Source: a virus. Taken from it: 42,664 bases of DNA. A program made the position numbers and the translations under genes. The notes below the pieces were generated by a model. It saw only the letters and a list, made by a program, of their open reading frames with translations, searched no databases and was not told where the DNA came from. Shown one piece after another: positions 1,309 to 38,878 of this stretch (position 1 is the first letter of the stretch; the number at the start of each line of letters is the position of its first letter). The stretch lies in the UHGV virus genome UHGV-0036008; one strand, written 5' to 3'.

Positions 1309-1571
1309 GGCACATCCCTGTGCCGCTGTTCTGTCAGAAGAACCCTGCCTTGTCGTTGATGTACTCCGCGTGGGTCTGGATATCACGCAGACATTTGCTC
1401 ACACCGACGATGTAGCAGAACATGGTGGTCAGCTCCGCCGCCGCACCCGATACGTCGTGCCCGTCTTCCTGTAACTGGTTCAGCAGATTCATCAGCAGTG
1501 AGTTCTCCGTCAGGCCGAGAACACCAGACGGCGAATGAATCAGGCTGCGGTAGCCGGGCTTCAGCGGGGCA
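1309..1571. repeat. Copy A of a roughly 260-bp direct repeat (about 95% identical to 33423..33690)
   Basis: Hand alignment: shared hairpin GGCACATCCCTGTGCC followed by the 3' end of an antirepressor-like gene. Confidence 0.8.
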
Positions 1572-2053
1572 CTGTATTCTTTTTTGTCTTCCAGCTTGAT
1601 CGCCTCCATAATGGCGGGCATGAATTTTTCAATTACCTGAGAGGCCTTAGATAAATCAGTTCCACCTGAGAGACGAACATCTCCACTGAGATTTGCGGGT
1701 TTTCTGTCGAAGTAGCAGTCTTCCAGTTTTTCGAACACTTCCCACGCCTGATCGGTTTCCAGCATTTTGGCATGGCGGGCTGCTCCGCGTTCTGTCCAGA
1801 GGATGAGGGAGCGAGTTTTGGGGGATACTGGATTTTGTGAGTTACTTAAAGTAACCCGTAAATTTTTCAGCTCATCGCCAACAACTTTGAAAAAGTGTTT
1901 TCCACAAACAAAGCGATCGGCATTGCGCGAATGGTTCACTTTGATGTTATTAGTGTCAGTGCTGTAAAGTCGCGCCAGTAGTTCGGTAGTGATGACGGGG
2001 ATGTGGTTATAGGTAATTGGGGAAAGAGATTCAACAGAAATTTGAGTAGCCAT
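1334..2053 (-). CDS. Antirepressor-like protein (ORF6N/Rha-type N-terminal domain fused to a shared C-terminal domain)
   Basis: N-terminus VITTELLARLY..NHSRNADRFVCGKHFF..LWTERGA pattern of phage ORF6N/Rha regulators; C-terminal 85 aa nearly identical to C-terminus of ORF 33447..34157. Confidence 0.55.
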   Translation of the reverse strand: MATQISVESLSPITYNHIPVITTELLARLYSTDTNNIKVNHSRNADRFVCGKHFFKVVGDELKNLRVTLSNSQNPVSPKTRSLILWTERGAARHAKMLETDQAWEVFEKLEDCYFDRKPANLSGDVRLSGGTDLSKASQVIEKFMPAIMEAIKLEDKKEYSAPLKPGYRSLIHSPSGVLGLTENSLLMNLLNQLQEDGHDVSGAAAELTTMFCYIVGVSKCLRDIQTHAEYINDKAGFF

Positions 2054-2202
2054 GGTTTTATGTCCTTTCGATTCGTTCAGATTACCCTGTGTTCAGCAGG
2101 GCGGTCAGGTACTTGAACACCGTCGAAAGTTCGGCCCGCATCCTTAGCCTTGCGGCTGTTTTTCGGTATACGCGCTACCCGACCATATCTGAAAAATGGA
2201 CA

Positions 2203-2689: not shown

Positions 2690-2965
2690 TTATTGCATAT
2701 GTTTTAGCTCCACTGAAGTTTTGATTTTATATGGGTTGCCTTTTACCTCAATAACACGATGAGGATCATTTTTTAGCTCTTCCGTAATCTTCCGTAATTT
2801 TCTAACAGCTGAACTGCGGTGTTTATAGCGGTAAGTTACAGTTTCTTTTCTCTGCAATACCTCATCATTGCAGTACTTAGTCAAAACCATGACGACTTCA
2901 AACCTGACGCCGTTGTGTGCAACCATGTTCATATGAACACAGTTGAATTTGCTAATCTGCTTCAT
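2690..2965 (-). CDS. Hypothetical protein, translationally coupled to the methyltransferase gene
   Basis: 91 aa from the internal Met of track ORF 2690..3085; ATG overlaps the upstream stop as ATGA. Confidence 0.4.
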   Translation of the reverse strand: MKQISKFNCVHMNMVAHNGVRFEVVMVLTKYCNDEVLQRKETVTYRYKHRSSAVRKLRKITEELKNDPHRVIEVKGNPYKIKTSVELKHMQ

Positions 2966-3612
2966 GCTGCACGTTCCCGCCCCTGGTTGTCTGTTGGTGA
3001 CAGCGGAGCATTGCTGAATGCATTTGTTAATCCGCCAATATCCAACGCGTATCCAGGGTGTAGTTGCACTGCCGGGTCTTCGCACTGATTACCCCAAACA
3101 TCGAAGCCATGAGACGTCTGGCGGGCGAACAGTTCAATGCGAGAAACATCGCCTAATAATTGCACAAGTTTTTCACGAACGATATCTGGCTTTCTTGAAT
3201 GCTCAAGCCGCGGTGCGGTAAATGACTGAACGATCCCTGCATTAATGCGCGTAGGTAGTTTTCCCTTTACCGCAAACAGGCAATCTTCACTATTGGCGCG
3301 AGTCATGTGTCCCATACCCATAACCAGTTTATCTGGTTGTCGACTACCACATTTTATCCACGTGAAGCCCTTCATGGTCATCAGACGGAATCCCCAGGCT
3401 TCAACAACTTTTAGCGCTTCGAGTGGTTGTGTTGGCACCCACCACATGGCCAACAGACAGTTTTCATCGGCCAAATCCCACACAGGAAGGCGGCAGATAT
3501 CCATCACACTCATAACCGGATATTTAAAACTGGCACCGCGATTACCATCTGCGGCTTTGTCCCGGTATACCCAGGGTGGATCTGCATAGATTAGTGTGTA
3601 TTTCTTAGTCAT
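2962..3612 (-). CDS. DNA N6-adenine methyltransferase, MT-A70/Dam-like (orphan)
   Basis: N-terminal TLIYADPPW motif (DPPW catalytic motif); no adjacent restriction endonuclease gene seen. Confidence 0.75.
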   Translation of the reverse strand: MTKKYTLIYADPPWVYRDKAADGNRGASFKYPVMSVMDICRLPVWDLADENCLLAMWWVPTQPLEALKVVEAWGFRLMTMKGFTWIKCGSRQPDKLVMGMGHMTRANSEDCLFAVKGKLPTRINAGIVQSFTAPRLEHSRKPDIVREKLVQLLGDVSRIELFARQTSHGFDVWGNQCEDPAVQLHPGYALDIGGLTNAFSNAPLSPTDNQGRERAA

Positions 3613-6468: not shown

Positions 6469-6559
6469 TTACCTCGGTCTGTTACCGTTGAGGTAATAAT
6501 TATGCGTATTTGGTTTGATGTCAATAGATATGAGTTAAAAAAATTACCCATCAGGTAAT
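6469..6559. promoter_or_regulatory. OL-like operator cluster: TTACC half-site plus two ATTACC-N5-GGTAAT palindromes
   Basis: Sites at about 6482..6497 and 6543..6559 between repressor terminator and leftward early operon. Confidence 0.6.
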
Positions 6560-6571
6560 AGTATAGGCAAT

Positions 6572-6594
6572 AAAAAAGCCGCCAGAAGGCGGCT
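6572..6594 (-). terminator. Rho-independent terminator of repressor gene
   Basis: GCCGCCAGAAGGCGGC hairpin followed by U6 on minus strand, 20 nt after repressor stop. Confidence 0.6.
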
Positions 6595-6615
6595 TACTTA
6601 CTGAAAAGTATGATT

Positions 6616-7200
6616 TTATTGTTTGTTTTTTTCGTTCTGGTTGATGACAAATTCAATGTAACTTTCGATCTTTGCTTTCTCGGTTTCGGGTAACAATGCG
6701 TAGCGCGAGCGGTCATAGTTGATGGTCGCAGGGTCGTGCGGGTGAATCAGTAATTCATAGCCGTGACGCCCGAATGCGGATGCAACATTCTCCAGGGTGG
6801 AAATGGAAACGCTGACCTCATTGTTTAACAGGCGACTGATTGTCACCTGGGCGACGCCGGATGCGCGGTGAAGTTTTCCCTGCGTTGAAAGGTCGCGGCT
6901 TTCGCTCATCCAGCGTTCCAGGTTGTGAGCCGCCAGCTGACCAATGTCGCTTGGGCCGACAGGCTGAAAACCTTCCTGAGAAAGCGAGCGATCGATATCA
7001 AGCCAGTTACGGGGTTTATTGGCGGCAGCTTCAATTTTTCGCGCAACCTGGTCGCCGATAACCTTCTTGCCAAGAGCCCAGCGGTTTACCAGATTTGCCT
7101 GAGTTCCAAGTTTTTCTGCCATCCGCGTCTGAACACCATTGAATTCACGGTCGATCAAGTCGTTGAGATTTTGCCTGCGGACGTCCTGGATACTTTTCAT
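6616..7200 (-). CDS. Prophage repressor, tandem XRE-type HTH, no S24 peptidase domain
   Basis: 194 aa; two HTH-like segments (QTRMAEKLGTQANLVNRW and ASGVAQVTISRLLNNEVS); sits between OL- and OR-like operator clusters, divergent from cro-like gene. Confidence 0.6.
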   Translation of the reverse strand: MKSIQDVRRQNLNDLIDREFNGVQTRMAEKLGTQANLVNRWALGKKVIGDQVARKIEAAANKPRNWLDIDRSLSQEGFQPVGPSDIGQLAAHNLERWMSESRDLSTQGKLHRASGVAQVTISRLLNNEVSVSISTLENVASAFGRHGYELLIHPHDPATINYDRSRYALLPETEKAKIESYIEFVINQNEKNKQ

Positions 7201-7254
7201 TTTCTGGAAAATCGCCTCATATATGAATCAGTAGATGATTCAATTTAAAGCAAT

Positions 7255-7319
7255 ATTACCCAACAGGTAAATGCACCTCATAGGTAACTATCCTTGATTT
7301 TTGTTACCTTATGGGTGAA
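7255..7319. promoter_or_regulatory. OR-like operator cluster in repressor/cro divergent region
   Basis: ATTACCcaacaGGTAAA at about 7255..7271 and degenerate TTACCttatgGGTGAA at about 7304..7319. Confidence 0.6.
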
Positions 7320-7354
7320 TATTTATTATCTGAAATAAATATCAGGCAATAGCT

Positions 7355-7585
7355 ATGAGCGATAACGGACATTTCGATTTCAAAAAGCACTGGCTTGCAC
7401 TTACTCCGGATGAGCGTGAAGCCTTCGCACAGGAAGCCGGAACGACGAGTCACTATATCCAGACTCACTTAACAGGTAAGCGCAAAATGCCAGGTAAAGT
7501 ATTGATGAATGGGCTTTTTAAAGCCTGTAAAACAAGACAATGGCTGCGCTCAAAAGCAGAACTGGCATACTTCTTCTACTCATGA
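7355..7585 (+). CDS. Cro-like HTH regulator
   Basis: 76-aa ORF divergent from repressor; LTPDEREAFAQEAGTTSHYIQTHLTGKRKMP resembles Cro/YdaS-type HTH. Confidence 0.5.
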   Translation: MSDNGHFDFKKHWLALTPDEREAFAQEAGTTSHYIQTHLTGKRKMPGKVLMNGLFKACKTRQWLRSKAELAYFFYS

Positions 7586-7606
7586 TATCCAGCTACAACC
7601 CTCTGT

Positions 7607-7631
7607 AGACCGCCACCCGGCGGTCTTTTCA
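7607..7631 (+). terminator. Rho-independent terminator after cro-like gene
   Basis: AGACCGCCACCCGGCGGTCT hairpin followed by TTTTC. Confidence 0.55.
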
Positions 7632-7735
7632 TATCTATTCGTACCTCAAAGGTAATAAATAACCAAATCTGGTTGATCTTTTTTTTGTGTCAGCACAAAA
7701 TGACCGTAATCCCAATACTAATAACAGGGCTTACC

Positions 7736-9585: not shown

Positions 9586-9664
9586 ATTACCTGGCGGGTA
9601 ATAAAATATTCTAAAATCTATTGATTTCGTGTCTTATGTGGTTTTTAATTACCTCAAGGGTAAA
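9586..9664. promoter_or_regulatory. Two ATTACC-N5-GGTAA palindromes; the second ends 2 nt before the ATG at 9667
   Basis: ATTACCtggcgGGTAAT at about 9586..9602; ATTACCtcaagGGTAAA at about 9648..9664. Confidence 0.55.
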
Positions 9665-13264: not shown

Positions 13265-13859
13265 GATGCCTGCTGAACCTAAAACCTATAAACGCAAATC
13301 AACGCAATTTAAGCCACTAACAGCAATGCAGGAGGCTTATTGCCAGTCATACATCAAAACGCCTGAAAACCAGACTCAGGCTGCGATTAATGCAGGATTC
13401 TCCCCAAATACAGCGGCAGTTAAAGCCAGTGTCATGATGCGCGATGAACGCATTCAGAAACGGATTGCCGAGTTGATGGAGGAGCGCAACAAACGAATGC
13501 GCGTCAGTGCTGATTACGTTCTCATGCGCCTGGTGGAGATCGACCAGATGGACGTGATTGACATTCTCAACGACGATGGGAGCCTTAAGCCAATCCGCGA
13601 GTGGCCGAAAATCTGGCGCACTACGCTTAGCGGCTTTGATCTGTCATCGACCATCATGAACATGAACGAGGATTCGATAGAGACAATCCTCAAAAAAATT
13701 AAATGGCCTGACAAGGTGAAGAACCTCGAACTGATTGGTAAGCACGTCGACGTCAACGCATTCAAAGAACGCCTGGATGTTAATGTGAATGTGACAATTG
13801 CTGATCGCATAGCAGCAGCCAGGAAGCGACTCAAAGAACGTCAGGATGGCAATCAGTGA
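13263..13859 (+). CDS. terS: Terminase small subunit (Terminase_2-type)
   Basis: LTAMQEAYCQSYIKTPENQTQAAINAGFSPNTAAVKAS motif; start at internal MM of track ORF; stop overlaps terL start. Confidence 0.75.
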   Translation: MMPAEPKTYKRKSTQFKPLTAMQEAYCQSYIKTPENQTQAAINAGFSPNTAAVKASVMMRDERIQKRIAELMEERNKRMRVSADYVLMRLVEIDQMDVIDILNDDGSLKPIREWPKIWRTTLSGFDLSSTIMNMNEDSIETILKKIKWPDKVKNLELIGKHVDVNAFKERLDVNVNVTIADRIAAARKRLKERQDGNQ

Positions 13860-15331
13860 CAGATGCAGCGTTATCTCCTGAAGAACAGTTGATCGAGGAT
13901 ATTGCAGGGTTCACTCACGATCCGCTTGGCTATGCCCTCTATGCGTTCCCATGGGGGGAAGAGGGGACTGAACTGGCACATGCCACCGGCCCACGTCAGT
14001 GGCAGGCTGATGCGTTCCGAGAGATACGTGATCACCTGCAGAATCCAGAGACGCGATATCAGCCGCTTATGCTGGCACGTGCTTCTGGTCACGGTATTGG
14101 TAAATCCGCATTCATCTCAATGCTGATCAACTGGGGCATGTCCACTTGCGAGGATTGTAAGGTCGTGGTGACCGCCAACACCGACAACCAGCTACGAACG
14201 AAGACCTGGCCGGAAATTATCAAGTGGTCAAACCTTGCTATCACGAAAGACTGGTTTACCTGTACCGCTACCGCGATGTACAGCAATGACCCTGGGCACG
14301 ACAAGCGGTGGCGAGCTGACGCAATCCCCTGGTCTGAGCACAACACTGAGGCATTCGCCGGACTACACAACGAGCGTAAACGCATCATCGTGGTATTTGA
14401 TGAAGCGTCGAACATTGCGGATCTGGTGTGGGAAGTTGCCGAGGGTGCGCTAACGGACGAAGACACTGAGATTATCTGGGTGGCTTTCGGAAACCCTACA
14501 CGTAACACCGGGCGTTTCCGTGAATGTTTCCGCAAATACAAACACCGCTGGAAAACTGCGCAGATTGACAGCAGGACGGTGGAAGGCACCAACAAACAGC
14601 AGTTGCAGAAATGGGTTGATGACTACGGGGAAGATAGCGACTTCGTTAAAATCCGTGTGCGTGGCATATTCCCTGATGCATCTGAATTGCAGTTTATCCC
14701 TACCGGTCTTACTGACGAGGCAATGAAACGGGTGGTAACCGCTGCGCAGGTTGCACATGCTCCGGTGATAATCGGCGTTGACCCGGCATACTCCGGCGTT
14801 GATGACGCTGTGATATACCTGCGGCAGGGGCTACACAGTAAGGTGCTGTGGACTGGCAACAAGACTACCGACGATCTGATTATGGCGAAGCGTATCGCTG
14901 ACTTTGAAGACCAGTATCAGGCTGACGCGGTGTTCATCGACTTCGGTTACGGAACCGGTTTGAAGTCAATCGGTGACGGCTGGGGTCGTACATGGCAACT
15001 TGTTCCGTTCGGTGGCGCGTCTACTGACCCGCAGATGCTTAACAAGCGTGGGGAGATGTTCAACTCATGTAAGACATGGCTGAGGCTGGGCGGCATGCTG
15101 GATGACCAGGAAACTGCAGACGACCTGTCGGCGGCAGAGTACAAAGTTCGCGTGGACGGTAAAATCGTTATCGAACCGAAGGAGGATATCAAGGAGCGGC
15201 TTGGGCGTTCGCCGGGTAAAGGCGATGCGCTACTGCTGACGTTTGCGTTCCCTGTGTCGAAGCGTCTGCGAATTCCCGGTCAGCAGAACCAGCAAGGCAA
15301 GGCCATCACAGATTACGATCCCTATGCTTAA
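13856..15331 (+). CDS. terL: Terminase large subunit
   Basis: 491 aa; Walker A-like ASGHGIGKS; GTG start overlapping terS stop; typical size and position. Confidence 0.85.
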   Translation: MTDAALSPEEQLIEDIAGFTHDPLGYALYAFPWGEEGTELAHATGPRQWQADAFREIRDHLQNPETRYQPLMLARASGHGIGKSAFISMLINWGMSTCEDCKVVVTANTDNQLRTKTWPEIIKWSNLAITKDWFTCTATAMYSNDPGHDKRWRADAIPWSEHNTEAFAGLHNERKRIIVVFDEASNIADLVWEVAEGALTDEDTEIIWVAFGNPTRNTGRFRECFRKYKHRWKTAQIDSRTVEGTNKQQLQKWVDDYGEDSDFVKIRVRGIFPDASELQFIPTGLTDEAMKRVVTAAQVAHAPVIIGVDPAYSGVDDAVIYLRQGLHSKVLWTGNKTTDDLIMAKRIADFEDQYQADAVFIDFGYGTGLKSIGDGWGRTWQLVPFGGASTDPQMLNKRGEMFNSCKTWLRLGGMLDDQETADDLSAAEYKVRVDGKIVIEPKEDIKERLGRSPGKGDALLLTFAFPVSKRLRIPGQQNQQGKAITDYDPYA

Positions 15332-15374
15332 TCCGCTGGTGGGGATAATATCGTTGATATCCTCTGGTGAGGAT

Positions 15375-15408
15375 AAAACAAAGCCAGCTCATAGGCTGGC
15401 TGTTTGTG
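15375..15408. terminator. Bidirectional intrinsic terminator between terL and convergent moron gene
   Basis: AGCCAGC-TCATAG-GCTGGCT hairpin flanked by A-run and T-rich tract. Confidence 0.5.
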
Positions 15409-15417
15409 ACATGTCAC
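15406..15417. repeat. Perfect 12-bp palindrome GTGACATGTCAC (copy 2)
   Basis: Identical to 13141..13152 including flanking TTGTGACATGTCACG. Confidence 0.7.
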
Positions 15418-15421
15418 GGCG

Positions 15422-15844
15422 TTAGAAGGTTATTTTATCGAATGCGGCGTTGATTGCCTTGGCGTCCTGCTCAGCACCAACCACATCAAGTAAAGATCTT
15501 TTACTAAGCACTTCAGCCAGGCATTGTAACTTCATGTTGTATAAGTTTTCGCGCATGTAATCATCATCACTTTTTTCTTTGGCGTATACAGCGCGAGAAA
15601 TATCAAACACATTGCCTTTTTCCATTTCAGTTTTCTGCGCTGAAATCCAGTCATGGCAAGTAACTCCTATTCCATGGTCATCGCTAAGCGTTAACCCGGC
15701 AAGTCGCTCACCTGGAATTGCTTCACAAAGCATTTCATTTCCTGCAAAAACACCATAAAAAATTGAGTCATCACCCTGAACAATGCGTACATATTTGCAC
15801 GGCCATTCATTTAGATATTTAGCTAGCATGTCGGCTGTTTTCAT
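15422..15844 (-). CDS. Hypothetical moron protein downstream of phage tRNA
   Basis: 140 aa from internal Met of track ORF (MKTADMLAKYLNEWPCKYV...); AGGTGA RBS; preceded within 10 nt by a terminator hairpin plus U8. Confidence 0.45.
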   Translation of the reverse strand: MKTADMLAKYLNEWPCKYVRIVQGDDSIFYGVFAGNEMLCEAIPGERLAGLTLSDDHGIGVTCHDWISAQKTEMEKGNVFDISRAVYAKEKSDDDYMRENLYNMKLQCLAEVLSKRSLLDVVGAEQDAKAINAAFDKITF

Positions 15845-15853
15845 GATCTCACC

Positions 15854-15879
15854 TAAAAAAAATGCCCGGCGAATCGGGC
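15854..15879 (-). terminator. Intrinsic terminator or attenuator immediately upstream of moron gene RBS
   Basis: GCCCGATTCGCCGGGC hairpin followed by U8 on minus strand; coordinates approximate. Confidence 0.45.
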
Positions 15880-15956
15880 GAACTGGAAGCAATGAGTTAT
15901 GCCTTCCGTGGCTGTACTGGTTTACAGCATGAAGCCATCGCAATGGCGTCATGCTG

Positions 15957-15999
15957 TAAAAAGGGCGGTGATAGTCCTTCAAGGGAAACCATCACCGCC
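15957..15999 (-). terminator. Intrinsic terminator downstream of tRNA-Arg
   Basis: GGCGGTGAT(N18)ATCACCGCC hairpin followed by CUUUUU on minus strand; coordinates approximate. Confidence 0.45.
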
Positions 16000-16042
16000 A
16001 AGCCCCTGGAACTTCTGGCATCACGGTCCTTAGGCGTGATTC

Positions 16043-16119
16043 TGGCGTGGCATGCAGGATTCGAACCTGCGACCAACCGCTTAGAAAGCGGTTGCTCTGT
16101 CCAGCTGAGCTAATGCCAC
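16043..16119 (-). tRNA. tRNA-Arg (anticodon UCU), phage-encoded, argU-like
   Basis: 77-nt cloverleaf read from reverse complement: acceptor GTGGCAT/ATGCCAC, D-arm GCTC/GAGC, anticodon stem ACCGC/GCGGT with loop TTTCTAA, T-arm GCAGG-TTCGAAT-CCTGC, 3' CCA. Confidence 0.85.
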
Positions 16120-16440
16120 AACGCTGAGAGCACTTAGCCTGTTAAGGCGCCACACTTTGTCGCGGCTCCATAAATGCTCTCATCGTTGTACCCTCGTCTC
16201 TTCCGAGGCGTCACACCGAATCGCCGGGATGGTGAATCCCCGTGCGCGGAATAAAACCGCTCGACTTGCACATTCCGGCTACCTGGTTCGTTTGCCACAG
16301 CCAGGGAGGGTGCCCCTTAAACGTATCCAGACCGCTATCGGCGCATGTGCCATACGCCGTACTGCTCAAAATAAAAGCTCACTCCACCTGTTCAATTTAA
16401 CGACAAGCCAGTCAGGTTAGTAACCGGAATGAACTCTTTG
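16120..16440 (-). other. About 320-nt GC-rich non-coding leader upstream of tRNA-Arg
   Basis: No credible ORF on either strand; lies between palindromic operator site and tRNA. Confidence 0.35.
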
Positions 16441-16457
16441 GTTACCTGAAAGGTAAT
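16441..16457. promoter_or_regulatory. ATTACC-N5-GGTAAT-type site (GTTACCtgaaaGGTAAT) in divergent region between tRNA locus and head operon
   Basis: Read from sequence. Confidence 0.5.
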
Positions 16458-16546
16458 AATTTGTGCGTTAAATGTCAACTACCTACGATAAATAAATCAT
16501 ATGTGGTTAAATTGGTAATAATTTAATTGCGTACGGAGTCATTGAT

Positions 16547-16753
16547 ATGTGCATGGGTAGCTCACCATCAGTGCCTGCAACACCAGAAGTTCAGGCAGCA
16601 CCACAGGAGCAGGATGCCGCCGTTGTTGATGCCCGCGACGAAGAAACTCGTCGCCGTCGCGCTGCTGCTGGTCGTAGTTCTACGCTGCTTACCGGTTCTC
16701 AGGGTGACACATCAACCGCTAATACCAGCGGTAAAACGCTGCTTGGTCAGTAA
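16547..16753 (+). CDS. Hypothetical small protein upstream of portal
   Basis: 68 aa; translation initiation region CGGAGTCATTGATATG almost identical to that of the portal gene; the 16527 frame looks non-coding. Confidence 0.35.
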   Translation: MCMGSSPSVPATPEVQAAPQEQDAAVVDARDEETRRRRAAAGRSSTLLTGSQGDTSTANTSGKTLLGQ

Positions 16754-16767
16754 CCGGAGTCATTGAA

Positions 16768-18447
16768 ATGGCGGAAACAACTAAAGAGCGATTGAACAAA
16801 CAGTTCGCACAACTTGAAAGCGAGCGTCAGTCGTTCGAGCCGCACTGGCGCGAGTTGAGTGATTACATCAACCCGCGTGGTTCCCGCTTTCTGACTTCTG
16901 AGGTCAACCGTAACGATCGACGCAATACACGCATTATTGATTCGACCGGGACTATGGCGGCGCGCACTCTCGCCAGCGGCATGATGTCAGGCATCACAAG
17001 CCCCGCGCGTCCGTGGTTTCGCCTGGCTACGCCAGATCCTGAAATGATGGATTATGGCCCTGTTAAGTTGTGGCTTGAGGCGGTGCAGAACCGCATGAAC
17101 GATATGTTCAATAAGTCGAATCTCTATCAGTCGCTGCCGCAGTTATACGGAAGCCTCGGCACATACAGCACTGGTGCAATGGCAGTGCTGGAGGATGACG
17201 AGGACATCATTCGCACAATGCCATTCCCGATAGGCAGTTACTACCTGGCTAACTCACCTCGTGGCAGTGTGGACACCTGTTTTCGCAAGTTCTCTATGAC
17301 TGTTCGTCAGCTTGTTCAGGAGTTCGGGCTAAATAACGTCAGCGAATCCGTAAAAAGCATGTGGGAAAGCGGAACCTACGAGAAGTGGATTGAAGTGATG
17401 CATTCGGTTTACCCGAACATTGACCGCGATACATCGAAGCTGGATAGCAAGAACAAGCCATTCAAATCGGTTTATTACGAGGTTGGTGGCGATAACGACA
17501 AGTTGTTGCGTGAGTCCGGATTCGATGAGTTTCCAATTATGGCTCCGCGCTGGGAAGTTAACGGCGAAGATGTTTATGGATCATCATGCCCGGGTATGCT
17601 GGCGCTTGGACCTGTTAAGGCATTGCAGCTTCTCCAGAAGCGCAAGTCGCAGTTGATTGATAAAGCCACCAATCCGCCGATGGTTGCTCCGACTTCCCTC
17701 AAGAATCAGCGTGCCTCCCTTCTTCCTGGCGACATCACGTATATCGATCAGATTACTGGTCAGGATGGTTTCAGGCCTGCTTATCTGGTTAACCCCAGTA
17801 CAGCAGATTTGGTGGCAGACATTCAGGACACCCGTCAAATCATTAACAGCGCCTACTTTGTCGATCTGTTCATGATGTTGCAGAACATCAATACCCGCTC
17901 GATGCCTGTTGAAGCGGTGATCGAAATGAAAGAAGAAAAACTTCTGATGTTGGGGCCGGTTCTGGAGCGTCTGAACGACGAATGTCTTAATCCTCTCATT
18001 GACCGCGCTTTCTCGATGATGGTGCGTAAAAACATGCTGCCGCCACCGCCTGACGCGATGGAAGGTATGCCCCTGAAGGTCGAATACATTTCCGTCATGG
18101 CTCAGGCGCAGAAGTCTATCGGCCTGTCCAGTCTGGCGTCCACGGTTAACTTCATTGGTCAACTTGCGCAAGCGAAACCAGAAGCTCTCGACAAACTCAA
18201 CGTTGATCAGGCGATCGATGCATTCGCTGATATGTCCGGAGTGTCTCCAACCGTCATTGTTCCGCAGGAACAGGTTGAGCAGGCTCGCCAGCAACGGGCA
18301 CAGCAACAACAGCAGCAACAAATGATGGCGATGGGGATGGCGGCGGCACAGGGTGCCAAGACGCTAAGCGAAGCTAAAACTTCGGATCCGAGTGTTTTGT
18401 CAGCTATGGCGAATGCAGTTAGTGGTCAGGGTGGGCAATCACAATGA
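16768..18447 (+). CDS. Portal (head-to-tail connector), T7 gp8-like
   Basis: 559 aa; Gln/Met/Ala-rich C-terminus (QQQQQQQMMAMGMAAAQGA) and overall pattern resemble T7-type portals; follows terL. Confidence 0.75.
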   Translation: MAETTKERLNKQFAQLESERQSFEPHWRELSDYINPRGSRFLTSEVNRNDRRNTRIIDSTGTMAARTLASGMMSGITSPARPWFRLATPDPEMMDYGPVKLWLEAVQNRMNDMFNKSNLYQSLPQLYGSLGTYSTGAMAVLEDDEDIIRTMPFPIGSYYLANSPRGSVDTCFRKFSMTVRQLVQEFGLNNVSESVKSMWESGTYEKWIEVMHSVYPNIDRDTSKLDSKNKPFKSVYYEVGGDNDKLLRESGFDEFPIMAPRWEVNGEDVYGSSCPGMLALGPVKALQLLQKRKSQLIDKATNPPMVAPTSLKNQRASLLPGDITYIDQITGQDGFRPAYLVNPSTADLVADIQDTRQIINSAYFVDLFMMLQNINTRSMPVEAVIEMKEEKLLMLGPVLERLNDECLNPLIDRAFSMMVRKNMLPPPPDAMEGMPLKVEYISVMAQAQKSIGLSSLASTVNFIGQLAQAKPEALDKLNVDQAIDAFADMSGVSPTVIVPQEQVEQARQQRAQQQQQQQMMAMGMAAAQGAKTLSEAKTSDPSVLSAMANAVSGQGGQSQ

Positions 18448-35758: not shown

Positions 35759-38700
35759 ATGACGGTCTCAACCGAAGTTGACCACAACGAATACACCGGT
35801 AACGGCGTTACGACATCGTTTCCGTATACTTTTCGAATTTTCAGAAAATCAGACCTGGTTGTTCAGGTGTCTGACCTGAACGGGAACGTAACAGAATTGG
35901 TCCTGGATACCGGTTATACGGTAACTGGGGCGGGCACTTATAGTGGCGGTTCTGTGGTTCTTCCGTCTCCGCTTGCTACTGGATGGCGAATTACGATAGA
36001 TCGTGTGCTTGATGTAGTGCAGGACACAGACCTTCGCAATCAGGGAAAATTTTTCCCCGAAGTGCATGAAGATGCCTTTGACTACCTGACGATGCTGATC
36101 CAGCAATGTTTTGGGTGGTTCAGACGTGCATTGATGAAGCCCTCTCTGCTTGCAAAATATTACGATGCAAAGCAAAACAAAATTTCTAACCTTGCAGATC
36201 CATCATTTGAGCAGGACGCTGTAAATAATCGCTCAATGCGTAATTATGTCGATGCTGCAATCGCCGGAGTTGTTGGTGGTTTTGGTTGGTTTATTCAGTA
36301 TGGTTCTGGGGCTGTGTACCGAACGTTCCAGGATAAAATGCGTGATGCTATTAGCCCCAAAGATTTTGGAGCTGTTGGTGATGGTATAAATGACGATTCC
36401 ACTGCAATAAGCGCGTGCCTTGAAGCCTCATCTCCAGGTTATAAAATTGACGGATTAGGGCTTACTTTTAAAGTATCAACTCTTCCGGATGTCAGTCGAT
36501 TTAAAAATGCTCGTTTTTTATTTGAGAGAATACCGGGCCAGCCTCTTTTTTATGCTTCTGAAGATTTTATCCAGGGAGAGTTATTTAAAATTACAGATAC
36601 ACCGTGGTACAACGCCTGGACGCAGGATAAAACGTTTGTATATGACAATGTCATCTATGCGCCTTTTATGGCTGGAGACCGCCATGGTGTGAATAACCTC
36701 CATGTTGCATGGGTTCGCTCAGGAGATGACGGGAAGACCTGGACAACGCCGGAATGGCTTACAGATTTACATGAAAACTATCCCACAGTTAACTATCACT
36801 GCATGAGTATGGGGGTTGTCAGAAATCGCCTTTTTGCTGTAATTGAGACGCGGACCGTGAGAGGAAATAAACTGCAGGTTGCAGAGTTGTGGGATCGCCC
36901 AATGAGTCGCAGCCTTCGCGTTTATGGTGGTATAACGAAAGCAGCAAATCAGCAAGTCGCTTATATTCGCATTACTGATCACGGATTATTTGCTGGTGAT
37001 TTTGTCAACTTCTCAAACTCTGGTGTTACAGGTGTTACCGGGAATATGACGGTGACTACTGTTATTGATAAAAATACCTTTACAGTTACGACGCAAAATA
37101 CCCAGGATGTGGATCAGAATAACGAGGGTAGATACTGGAGTTTTGGCACATCATTTCACTCGTCACCATGGAGAAAAACCAGTCTTGGAACTATTCCTTC
37201 TTTTGTTGACGGAAGCACTCCTGTTACTGAGATTCACAGTTTTGCGACGATTAGCGATAACAGTTTTGCTGTTGGCTACCATAATGGTGATATTGGTCCA
37301 CGCGAGCTTGGGATACTCTATTTCTCTGATGCTTTCGGTTCTCCTGGTAGCTTTGTTCGCAGACGCATACCTGTAGAATATGAGGCGAATGCATCTGAGC
37401 CATGTGTAAAATATTATGATGGCATTCTGTATCTGACGACCAGGGGGACATTAAGTACTCAACCCGGTAGTTCATTGCACAGAAGCTCTGATTTAGGTAC
37501 ATCATGGAATTCTCTTCGCTTCCCAAATAATGTTCATCACTCAAACCTTCCTTTTGCCAAAGTTGGCGATGAGCTGATTATTTTTGGCAGTGAGCGCGCA
37601 TTTGGTGAGTGGGAAGGAGGAGAACCTGATAACCGTTATGCAGGAAATTATCCAAGAACATTTATGACCAGAGTTAACGTCAATGAGTGGAGTCTGGATA
37701 ATGTAGAGTGGGTTAATGTTACTGATCAGATTTATCAGGGCGGAATAGTTAACTCTGCGGTTGGTGTTGGTTCAGTTTGTATCAAAGACAACTGGCTGTA
37801 CTACATTTTCGGTGGGGAAGACTTTCTAAACCCATGGAGCATAGGGGATAACAACAGAAAATATCCTTATGTTCACGATGGTCACCCGGCTGATTTGTAT
37901 TGTTTCAGGGTGAAAATTAAACAGGAAGAATTTGTTTCAAGGGATTTTGTCTACGGAGCCACTCCTAACAGAACGCTTCCTACTTTTATGTCGACGTCAG
38001 GCGTGAGGACGGTTCCTGTACCCGTTGATTTCACAGATGATGTTGCCGTCCAGTCACTGACTGTCCATGCAGGTACATCAGGACAAGTTCGCGCGGAAGT
38101 CAAACTTGAGGGTAATTACGCCATTATTGCGAAGAAAGTACCGTCTGATGATGTTACCGCTCAGAGATTAATCGTTAGCGGCGGTGAAACAACGTCTTCA
38201 GCAGATGGTGCAATGATAACGTTGCATGGTTCCGGAAGCAGTACTCCACGTCGCGCGGTATATAACGCACTCGAACATCTTTTTGAGAACGGAGATGTTA
38301 AACCTTATCTTGATAATGTAAATGCTCTTGGTGGTCCGGGAAACAGGTTCTCGACAGTTTATCTTGGCTCCAATCCTGTGGTTACCAGTGACGGAACATT
38401 AAAGACAGAGCCGGTCTCTCCTGACGAAGCATTGCTGGATGCCTGGGGTGACGTCAGGTATATCGCTTATAAATGGCTGAACGCTGTCGCTATAAAGGGG
38501 GAAGAAGGGGCGAGGATACATCATGGTGTAATCGCGCAGCAACTTCGTGATGTTCTTATTTCTCACGGACTCATGGAAGAAGAAAGCACAACATGCCGCT
38601 ATGCCTTTCTTTGCTATGACGATTATCCCGCAGTATATGATGACGTCATTACTGGCCAAAGGGAAATGCCGCTGACTGATAATGACGGGAGCATCATTGT

Positions 38701-38878
38701 TGATGAGGATGATAATCCAGTGATGGTAATAGAAGACATCATTGAGCGCGTTGAAATAACGCCAGCAGGATCTAGATGGGGGGTCAGACCTGATCTCTTA
38801 TTCTATATCGAGGCAGCATGGCAGCGCAGAGAAATGGATAAGATAAAAGAGCGGGTTCAGTCTCTGGAAGAACGTTAA
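35759..38878 (+). CDS. Tailspike / tail fibre with depolymerase-type domain and C-terminal S74 intramolecular chaperone
   Basis: 1039 aa; T7-tail-fibre-like N-terminus (NEYTGNGVTTSFPYTFRIF); DFGAVGDGINDDSTAI beta-helix motif; Asp-boxes SGDDGKTW and SSDLGTSW; C-terminal SDGTLKTE...HHGVIAQQL autoprocessing signature. Confidence 0.8.
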   Translation: MTVSTEVDHNEYTGNGVTTSFPYTFRIFRKSDLVVQVSDLNGNVTELVLDTGYTVTGAGTYSGGSVVLPSPLATGWRITIDRVLDVVQDTDLRNQGKFFPEVHEDAFDYLTMLIQQCFGWFRRALMKPSLLAKYYDAKQNKISNLADPSFEQDAVNNRSMRNYVDAAIAGVVGGFGWFIQYGSGAVYRTFQDKMRDAISPKDFGAVGDGINDDSTAISACLEASSPGYKIDGLGLTFKVSTLPDVSRFKNARFLFERIPGQPLFYASEDFIQGELFKITDTPWYNAWTQDKTFVYDNVIYAPFMAGDRHGVNNLHVAWVRSGDDGKTWTTPEWLTDLHENYPTVNYHCMSMGVVRNRLFAVIETRTVRGNKLQVAELWDRPMSRSLRVYGGITKAANQQVAYIRITDHGLFAGDFVNFSNSGVTGVTGNMTVTTVIDKNTFTVTTQNTQDVDQNNEGRYWSFGTSFHSSPWRKTSLGTIPSFVDGSTPVTEIHSFATISDNSFAVGYHNGDIGPRELGILYFSDAFGSPGSFVRRRIPVEYEANASEPCVKYYDGILYLTTRGTLSTQPGSSLHRSSDLGTSWNSLRFPNNVHHSNLPFAKVGDELIIFGSERAFGEWEGGEPDNRYAGNYPRTFMTRVNVNEWSLDNVEWVNVTDQIYQGGIVNSAVGVGSVCIKDNWLYYIFGGEDFLNPWSIGDNNRKYPYVHDGHPADLYCFRVKIKQEEFVSRDFVYGATPNRTLPTFMSTSGVRTVPVPVDFTDDVAVQSLTVHAGTSGQVRAEVKLEGNYAIIAKKVPSDDVTAQRLIVSGGETTSSADGAMITLHGSGSSTPRRAVYNALEHLFENGDVKPYLDNVNALGGPGNRFSTVYLGSNPVVTSDGTLKTEPVSPDEALLDAWGDVRYIAYKWLNAVAIKGEEGARIHHGVIAQQLRDVLISHGLMEEESTTCRYAFLCYDDYPAVYDDVITGQREMPLTDNDGSIIVDEDDNPVMVIEDIIERVEITPAGSRWGVRPDLLFYIEAAWQRREMDKIKERVQSLEER

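Follow-up and report, generated by a model that had tools for sequence, protein, structure and literature searches.

In lambda and HK022, the place after cI and the left operators is occupied by nutL and putL, respectively. The C4 RNAs of P1 and P7 and the CI RNA of P4 have tRNA-like features and are processed by RNase P. GOLLD and ROOL are large, ornate and modular RNAs of phages and prophages, of unknown function and frequently adjacent to tRNA genes, and in eukaryotes RNase P cuts the MALAT1-mascRNA transcript at a tRNA-like domain. The put RNAs of HK022 act in cis as processive antiterminators; they are about 70 nucleotides (nt) long and consist of two stem-loops (PMC9378689). Here we describe an RNA element that invites comparison with these systems and was found in the virus genome UHGV-0036008. 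The analysed stretch of DNA, called the window below, is 42,664 nt long and represents a podophage similar to phiV10 and epsilon15 (Uetakevirus); the analysis was computational. The element belongs to a minus-strand cassette that lies between terL and the portal gene, on the strand opposite to both. A sequence-only reading of the window had listed at this site an operator, a long GC-rich leader, a tRNA-Arg(UCU), terminators and a long stem-loop, and a gene for a protein of 140 amino acids (aa), and all these parts were found where it had placed them, on the minus strand. The cassette as listed there is ordinary, the tRNA and the terminators being ordinary members of their kinds. The leader contains a conserved structured RNA, the core, and there is a substantial chance that its family represents a new regulator class.

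Like HK022 put, the element is a structured RNA directly after a repressor-controlled early promoter, followed by terminators and early genes, and both occur in lambda-like phages without annotated N. The element differs from put in having a core of 156–179 nt with at least four helices and a pseudoknot, to which a hairpin (M2) and a tRNA-shaped domain are added. Each phage has a single copy, P1-like and podovirus genomes are among the carriers, and the role of the element in antitermination is a prediction. Homology to put was rejected: the covariance model R1, built in this analysis, finds nothing in the 22.5–31.5 kb region of HK022, the BLAST matches exclude HK022, and size and helix count differ.

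The genomic position is also that of lambda nutL, and there is a loose likeness to boxB in hairpin P5 of the core, where a covarying stem of 5 bp carries the purine-rich, nearly invariant loop GAAGAGA. In contrast to nut, the element is much larger, occurs also in phages that are not lambda-like and has no annotated N-like protein. A lambda-type nut site, with a GCUCUUUAACAA-like boxA, boxB and N, was ruled out as well, the best boxA in the cassette having at least three mismatches. Only one sub-lineage (L194; L188 is similar) has a perfect rrn-type boxA, TGCTCTTTAACAA, which follows a hairpin 37 nt after the core; this hairpin might just as well terminate a convergent gene.

The C4 and CI RNAs are likewise structured RNAs at the start of phage operons, and phages with the element carry C4/isrK elsewhere, but the element is far larger and the Rfam C4 model has no match at its locus. 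A C4-like antisense role in the window was rejected, as the longest downstream complementarity is 8 nt and is equalled in 115 of 200 shuffles; among the matches listed for the window, none of 12 nt or more was found beyond the trivial opposite strand. GOLLD and ROOL resemble the element as ornate modular phage RNAs tied to tRNAs. They are 500–800 nt long and come mainly from Firmicutes and from lake or rumen, whereas the element is enterobacterial, smaller and tied to early promoters, and their Rfam models match neither the cassette nor a lambda-like copy. With tRNA mimics (MALAT1-mascRNA, the Y RNA YrlA, viral tRNA-like structures) the element shares a tRNA-shaped domain fused to a larger RNA, and an elbow formed by canonical T and D loops or by complementary kissing loops. 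Unlike in these mimics, a genuine tRNA can take the place of the mimic in the element, and processing is here predicted; Rfam gave no match to YrlA or Y RNA. In position the element comes closest to put and nut, and as a phage RNA associated with tRNAs or RNase P it comes closest to GOLLD/ROOL and C4/CI, but by these tests it belongs to none of them. The Pas small RNAs, which lie near lysis genes, are unrelated.

The core RNA and its distribution

The core occupies 178 nt of the minus strand (16186..16363), where R1 scores 140.9 bits (E = 3.7e-42), and is present in a single copy in the window. Its alignment (A3) contains 35 copies, each less than 95% identical. The helices of the core are P1, P2, P4 and P5. 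P1 is the hairpin CGGCRUAUG-GCA-CAUGYGCCG. P2 opens with AGCGGUC and encloses a variable hairpin; it is followed by the near-invariant unpaired stretch GGUAGCCGGAAUGUGCAAG and by another variable hairpin. The P4 helix with the loop UCACC precedes GGCGAUWCGGUGUGAC, and a pseudoknot is formed by pairing of CACC in the P4 loop with the downstream GGUG. P5 is the hairpin CCUCG-GAAGAGA-CGAGG.

Standard pairs make up 94.7% of the cells in the 35 core sequences, versus 29–42% with slid partners. Compensatory changes affect both sides of ten pairs, and no shuffle attains a covariation score as high as the observed one. The pseudoknot has one variable position, which is C-G in 31 sequences and A-U in four and is unpaired in none, in lineages with different P4 stems. 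The structure can be assigned to the minus strand of the window, as numerous G-U pairs would turn into A-C mismatches if the opposite strand were read.

The prediction of about 320 nt of GC-rich, structured non-coding RNA was borne out. The 321 nt between the operator and the tRNA (16440..16120) fold better than shuffles (z = -3.8), and the GC content is 0.54 here and 0.59 in the core, versus 0.487 in the whole window. Stops are present in every frame in at least 19 of the 35 core sequences, and the two variable hairpins span 26–49 and 21–32 nt, with lengths that are not multiples of three. The core region is thus not coding; for the small protein that the same reading had considered for these 320 nt, no frame is kept open across the aligned sequences. 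What that reading missed is that the RNA is no private leader of the tRNA: it is an autonomous, widely distributed module that occurs also without a tRNA. There is little doubt that this is a family of conserved, structured RNAs with the architecture described.

Rfam 15 has no match to the minus strand of 16120..16440, either at the gathering score or up to E = 10. Rfam scans of the whole window for the element and of a lambda-like copy also gave no family, and only the tRNA was matched at the cassette. When R1 was run on 100 genome loci, it gave 13 matches, all of them true copies, and none of the 87 chance 16-mer loci was matched. These chance loci came from a 16-mer scan of 596 Gb of genome contigs, in which most matches were due to chance; the scan was filtered by additional motifs, and the chance loci later served as the negative control. 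Filtered pattern scans of viral and genome contigs yielded 142 copies in 51 clusters at 93% identity. Named genome hosts of the copies include Kosakonia, Citrobacter, Kluyvera, Klebsiella, Phytobacter and Superficieibacter.

A sensitive BLAST search with 16120..16470 matched 86 phage records. The identity is about 81% in lambda-like phages (mEp460, cdtI, Ayreon, Stx2c and Stx2k phages) and about 79% in P1, P7, D6, SJ46 and RCS47; R1 scores the P1 copy at 126 bits. Further matches are in Klebsiella, Enterobacter and Salmonella phages and in one Stenotrophomonas phage. Three of the phages with the element, Ayreon, mEp460 and P1, grow on K-12. The element is present in 1840 of 5426 complete E. 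coli genomes, on chromosomes and P1-like plasmids, and is never annotated there, except for an adjacent tRNA. A covarying pseudoknotted RNA with 19 almost invariant unpaired bases stands unannotated in about one third of complete E. coli genomes, and likewise in P1, in phages of the phiV10/epsilon15 type and in lambda-like, Klebsiella and Stenotrophomonas phages.

Annotation pipelines leave the element blank or cover it with spurious small open reading frames (ORFs). Hypothetical ORFs over the element are phiV10p04 (L001 2672..2923), mEp460_037 and mEp460_036 (L005 2443..2811 and 2853..2996) and Ayreon 0037 (L252 8668..8787). They overlap the structured RNA or its terminator hairpin or run antisense to the tRNA, and are probably spurious.

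Epsilon15 retains only a core remnant (L002 2189..2388, 33.9 bits); the deletion extends from P2 to beyond the first terminator, T1, and includes the tRNA. A hairpin that adjoins this remnant upstream is annotated on the opposite strand as an RNase III processing site. Part of the structure was thus noticed before, as the epsilon15 annotators marked this "RNaseIII" hairpin. No description of the core RNA was found in the open full-text literature, including a search by conserved sequence, with subscription journals outside its scope; an earlier description may exist.

Promoter, tRNA slot and cargo junction

The early promoter and an overlapping repressor operator (16442..16479, minus strand) were recognised from motif counts and conservation in relatives. 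The -35 box TTGACA (16479..16474) is conserved in phiV10, epsilon15 and Klebsiella relatives, and so is the operator, a perfect palindrome TTACCTTTCAGGTAA (16456..16442) that overlaps a weak -10 box TACCTT (16455..16450) and is an exact copy of a motif repeated in the window. This motif, TTACCT-N3-AGGTAA, has 15 copies in the window with at most two mismatches, versus 0.95 expected; together with the conservation in relatives, the count confirms the operator that had been proposed ahead of the leader. The copies are found at 6482..7655 (the immunity region), 9587..9663, 13231, 33360, 34427..34534 (beside C4/isrK) and 35640, and their dispersal suggests a regulon of several separate repressor-controlled promoters, similar to that of P1 C1. 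The epsilon15 annotation has repressor and IHF sites at the homologous place. A scan for consensus sigma-70 promoters (15200..16900) called neither the TTGACA promoter nor any other one; because this stringent scan made no call there, the promoter activity of the cassette is one that we infer. Between the operator and the core, folding and alignment with relatives define a 78-nt leader segment with a hairpin (16364..16441, minus strand). It resembles the 3' half of a hairpin module carried by other family members, and its GTCGTTAAAT...GGTGGAGTG(A/C)GC is common to the M2-type hairpins of loci L015 and L008.

A similar context was found in other phages. In mEp460, cI is followed by a terminator and two operators TTGC-N7-GCAA; next come the element, a strong terminator and a long hairpin, and then the early-left genes. 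Another copy of the operator motif lies between cro and cI (three sites versus 0.27 expected). In all six further divergent lambda-like loci, a CI-type repressor gene on the same strand ends 110–215 nt upstream of the core. These six repressors are very different, having helix-turn-helix and Peptidase_S24 domains or a helix-turn-helix alone. The order in the Stenotrophomonas phage is that of the lambda-like loci. In the Ayreon annotation, cI is separated from the element by a terminator and a promoter, and the early-left operon has a further terminator within it; Q is annotated and N is not, and mEp460 is likewise without annotated N. The mEp phages were collected as Nus-dependent phages (PMC11893012). 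The core of P1 stands alone in the ban operon, which C1 controls; it lies between trnI and ban, about 100 nt before the latter. P1-like elements have a tRNA directly upstream of the core. In locus L176, too, the core is alone; a gene that has a Shine-Dalgarno sequence of its own lies about 25 nt behind it. This promoter and repressor context argues that, in many temperate phages of enterobacteria, the element is the first thing transcribed from repressor-controlled early promoters, and makes it a concrete candidate for how N-less lambda-like phages pass their early terminators. The ban operon of P1 also has an annotated dicF-like region (L004 269..370, which is P1 68791..68892) and three tRNA genes, and is thus rich in RNA genes.

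The M2 hairpin (16118..16189, minus strand; z = -6.4) has an 18–19 bp stem, ACAACGAUGAGAGCA.../...UGCUCUCAGCGUUGU, and a variable tip. Its stem is kept by compensatory changes in 29 variants, and its tip, of 12 to 173 nt, is exchanged wholesale. The 3' end of M2 is GUUGUGG and runs into the next domain; in the window, the last two pairs of M2 overlap positions 1–2 of the tRNA. In L131 and L248 the M2 tip has a pair of hairpins that look like T-arms, CUGG-UUCAAUU-CCAG and GUCCG-UUCAAUU-CGGAC, and that resemble the double T-loop modules by which tRNA elbows are docked.

The tRNA-Arg(UCU) (16043..16119, minus strand) is 77 nt long with an encoded CCA. Its proposed canonical form is confirmed by ARAGORN (tct) and by a full-length match to Rfam RF00005 (71.1 bits versus a gathering score of 29). 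By inspection it is a regular cloverleaf with A20, C35 and U32; A20 and C35 are identity elements for ArgRS, and E. coli argU has C at position 32. AGA and AGG are used 7.3 and 6.2 times per 1000 codons in the genes of the window, several-fold (about threefold) above the E. coli average. Most AGA codons are in the large tail genes, with 17 in 35759..38878 and 12 in 28193..31582. This high use makes supplementation of the codons by the tRNA plausible, as the sequence-only reading had suggested, and a role of the tRNA in countering tRNA-targeting defences is no more than a possibility. The tRNA is not an attP remnant: it is complete, and attP of these phages is next to int, with attB at guaA (PMC9782041).

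A tRNA-Arg(UCU) follows the core in nine representatives, the window and eight others of the Uetakevirus type. Elsewhere in the family, a different RNA, 95–200 nt long, stands between the same flanks, CGUUGUGG ... CCA-AAUCACGCC. These alternative third domains are predicted to fold as tRNA-shaped cloverleaves with an acceptor-like stem of 6–10 bp, after which CCA is often found. In type A and in L166, the loops of the first and last hairpins are complementary (GGCUGA with AGAUCAGCA or AGUUCAGCA); the Stx2c type has another complementary loop pair (AAAUGG with GACCAUACG), and L200 and L204 have canonical T-loops (UUCGAAU, UUCGAUU) together with GG-containing D-loops. The third domain of L133, an IMG/VR contig, is a 95-nt cloverleaf with the 7-nt anticodon-like loop CUUUUAA, similar to that for Lys (UUU), and a long variable arm. 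Its D-like and T-like loops can pair (GCUGA with UCGGC), and ARAGORN made no tRNA call on it. Among the 142 copies, 30 have tRNA-Arg, 32 lack the M2 end motif (being core-only or having a different 3' module), and the rest have non-tRNA third domains; beside the element in lambda-like loci ARAGORN found no tRNA. Since identical flanks surround tRNA-Arg and the non-tRNA cloverleaves, the family has a replaceable tRNA slot. The hairpin AUCACG-CCUAAGGAC-CGUGAU that follows it (16020..16040, minus strand) is found in members with and without a tRNA, and the motif AATCACGCC after the tRNA-like domain is also present in L049, L076 and L153.

Four terminator-like sites, three of them good minus-strand ones (T1, T2 and T3), were found in 1.7 kb, versus 1.7 expected. 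T1 (15958..15999, minus strand; -22 kcal/mol in a simple hairpin-plus-U scan) has a 14-bp stem (15999..15964) followed by CUUUUU, and an equivalent is present in relatives, including lambda-like members. In the minimum free energy fold, T1 is separated from T2 by a long stem-loop, ACAGCAUGA...UCAUGCUGU (15924..15957, minus strand), which is kept in epsilon15 despite the loss of the tRNA and most of the core. T2 consists of GCCCGAUUCGCCGGGC, an A and eight U; with the Shine-Dalgarno sequence it occupies 15848..15879 of the minus strand. The hairpin itself, GCCCGATTCGCCGGGC, is at 15879..15864 and the U-run at 15862..15855. The U-run abuts the Shine-Dalgarno sequence AGGUGAG (15854..15848), and the ATG is at 15844. 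The scan, the fold and the sequence thus recover T1, the stem-loop and the T2 hairpin with its U8 at the ribosome-binding site, all as had been described. T3 (15382..15401, minus strand), 51 nt beyond the terL stop and convergent with terL, ends the cassette. It had been taken for a bidirectional terminator; the scan supports the minus strand and did not pick up the plus-strand reading, and the phiV10 annotation has a rho-independent terminator at the homologous site on the other strand.

The close contact of T2 with the ribosome-binding site had been described as a feature of the 140-aa gene. The contact is present, but it is no peculiarity of this gene, as the junction "gcccggttcgccgggcatttttttaaggtgagattATG" is conserved before different cargo genes. 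Cassettes of the Uetakevirus type keep T2 fused to the ribosome-binding site (gcccggttcgccgggcattttttt-aaggtgagatt-ATG), while the gene behind it varies, which argues for a docking junction for interchangeable cargo. Where the junction is conserved, T2 ends about 10–25 nt before the start codon. The cargo includes a member of the gp49/gene-66 family (PF13876) in phiV10, the 140-aa family with relatives of 139–204 aa, an 89-aa protein and, in Klebsiella phage ST512-KPC3phi13.3 (L007 2011..2532), a 173-aa protein similar to Tad2 (PF11195, Thoeris anti-defence 2-like; E = 4e-26). Judging from this Tad2-like protein, the slot may be a hotspot of anti-defence genes. RNA regulation, phage tRNAs and anti-defence islands would thus meet in one unit made of the RNA, a tRNA or its mimic, and docked cargo, in one case Tad2-like.

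The cargo gene of the window (15422..15844, minus strand) encodes the 140-aa protein and is moron-like. Its GC content of 0.41, versus 0.487 in the window, indicates an insert. The protein was said to have no recognisable family, and we agree: Pfam has no match, it belongs to PHROG 4846 ("unknown function"), and its AlphaFold2 model (pLDDT 80; a small beta-sheet with helices) gave nothing convincing in Foldseek, the best E-values being 2.3 in PDB and 1.2e-3 in BFVD, the latter with unnamed proteins. It has 111 homologs, and all those with a source name are from Enterobacterales. The name "moron" fits in part. As in phage morons, the gene is a low-GC insert between two late genes, flanked by terminators, and it varies among relatives; the accompanying tRNA, as is usual for phage tRNAs, decodes a codon rare in the host. 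It differs from morons in that no private promoter was found (the scan of 15200..16900 gave no sigma-70-like promoter between T1 and the cargo ATG), in its predicted dependence on read-through and in the conserved docking junction. Downstream terminators are frequent in the family as a whole, and in the hairpin-plus-U scan 33 of 52 representatives have one to three within 900 nt after the core, ahead of the next gene on the same strand.

Possible functions of the core

Judged by position and architecture, the best supported of the possible mechanisms is that the core would be a cis-acting leader of early operons that promotes read-through of terminators, a proposal to which we give clearly less than even chances. 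Infection or induction would free the operator, and RNA polymerase would transcribe the core first. The folded core could then act in cis on the transcribing complex; its near-invariant unpaired stretches may point to a conserved host partner. A fraction of the polymerases would read through T1 and T2 or, in lambda-like phages, through the early-left terminators, and the RNA would fill the role that N/nutL in lambda and putL in HK022 have at this map position. Cleavage by RNase P at the tRNA or tRNA-like domain, and possibly by RNase III in the M2 stem, would separate the core RNA from the tRNA. The tRNA would supplement decoding of AGA and AGG, which are frequent in the tail genes, and the 140-aa cargo protein would be made only from read-through transcripts. 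A broader version is more doubtful: the core could represent a new phage RNA class whose partner is the transcription machinery of the host or some other universally conserved host factor, and which replaces N/nut or put in the many N-less lambda-like phages and was adopted by P1-like and epsilon15-like phages, with the tRNA-shaped 3' domain recruiting RNase P for release. If the core does bind a host factor, about one third of complete E. coli genomes would carry an undescribed regulator of early phage genes and of the anti-defence cargo linked to them.

Several observations weigh against a cis-acting read-through leader. The element has no similarity to HK022 put (R1 in the HK022 immunity region), and boxA is not general, being perfect in one sub-lineage only. 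A processively modified polymerase would also pass the weaker T3 and continue antisense into terL. Epsilon15 keeps T2 and a cargo gene without the tRNA and most of the core, about one third of the representatives have no detectable terminator within 900 nt of the core, and downstream of the core in L188 and L194 the coding strand seems to be the opposite one. The strength of T1 behind the tRNA, and the intricate modular construction, are just as compatible with a separate gene for a stable RNA, and the conserved tRNA shape is left unexplained. The absence of N is taken from annotation, and N-like proteins may be present unannotated.

Some of these points lead to an alternative that we also treat as doubtful and yet consider nearly as likely as the cis-acting leader, namely a trans-acting early RNA matured by RNase P. 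The segment from the promoter to T1 would then be an RNA gene, and RNase P would release a stable RNA of the core and M2 that binds or sequesters a conserved host factor for take-over or anti-defence; the cargo would be expressed only by leak-through. For the tRNA-shaped part, roles as a second product or as a decoy for nucleases directed at tRNAs are conceivable. The layout is indeed gene-like, with an operator-controlled promoter, a structured RNA of about 400–480 nt and the strong T1 (-22 kcal/mol). A tRNA or tRNA-shaped 3' domain is conserved in every type of third domain that was looked at, with kissing loops (GCUGA/UCAGC, AUGG/CCAU) or canonical T and D loops, and the long near-invariant unpaired stretches suit recognition by a conserved partner. 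Early-left operons, as in lambda, typically carry host take-over functions; a Tad2-like anti-defence gene occupies the neighbouring cargo slot in the Klebsiella relative, and the window and mEp460 already carry C4, an RNA processed by RNase P. It is harder to reconcile a trans-acting RNA with the intact cores that stand directly before protein genes (P1 ban and L176), without M2, a tRNA-like domain or a nearby terminator. An antisense target was not found either, the longest downstream complementarity (8 nt) being no better than in shuffles.

Taken at its plainest, the sequence-only reading would mean that the 320 nt serve only expression, folding or processing of the tRNA precursor and that the tRNA, for codon supplementation or for evading tRNA-targeting defences, is the sole functional product; this is improbable. 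It would suit the canonical tRNA, with A20, C35 and the encoded CCA all kept, the AGA and AGG usage of 7.3 and 6.2 per 1000, and the tRNA directly downstream of the core in nine representatives or directly upstream in P1-like elements. However, most members have no tRNA: tRNA-Arg is present in 30 of 142 copies, and the lambda-like loci have none. The core is conserved far beyond the needs of a processing leader and stands alone before ban in P1.

Still less credible is a riboswitch-like leader, in which the pseudoknotted core would work as an aptamer and tune read-through into the early or cargo genes in response to a host metabolite or to an immune signalling nucleotide. A compact pseudoknot, near-invariant unpaired bases and covarying stems are the typical signature of an aptamer, terminators lie downstream, and one cargo protein is a Tad2-like sponge for the Thoeris signal. 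Nevertheless, no expression platform overlaps the core, with at least 150 nt of M2 and tRNA before T1, and no alternative pairing was seen between the 3' part of the core and a terminator; the downstream cargo is unrelated from phage to phage, and no Rfam riboswitch class was matched. Least probable of all is a DNA-level element, a single-stranded DNA structure or a recombination or insertion site for swapping of tRNA and cargo modules, as might be suggested by a modular family in which both slots are bounded by conserved sequences and shuffled between unrelated phages, since the strand-specific pairing with many G-U pairs and the constant orientation with local transcription after a promoter fit an RNA, no recombinase is linked to the element, and attP lies elsewhere, next to int, with attB at guaA (PMC9782041).

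Relatives and other features of the window

The best BLAST matches of 15300..16800 among phage records are Uetakevirus podophages. The closest is PAS61 (97.6% identity over 99% of the query), followed by HEMP4, phiV10 and ZX5, and epsilon15 is more distant. The flanking genes were assigned from the annotation of phiV10, epsilon15 and PAS61: the large terminase gene terL is at 13856..15331 and the portal gene at 16768..18447, both on the strand opposite to the cassette. Just 5' of the portal gene, a plus-strand ORF (16547..16753) encodes a 68-aa protein rich in Ala, Arg and Thr, which is conserved as epsilon15 gp3 and phiV10p06 and has no Pfam family. This ORF diverges from the promoter region of the cassette.

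Rfam matches identify adjacent C4 antisense RNA and isrK at 34206..34390 on the minus strand (66 and 67.7 bits), with C4 alone at 34206..34289. The pair is an antisense immunity module of the P1/P7 ImmI type inside a podophage, and is also found in the right operon of the lambda-like mEp460 (L005 206..394). Near the left end of the window, sRNA-Xcc1 is matched at 2095..2184 on the minus strand (64.2 bits, gathering score 53), just upstream of a 239-aa minus-strand ORF (1334..2053).

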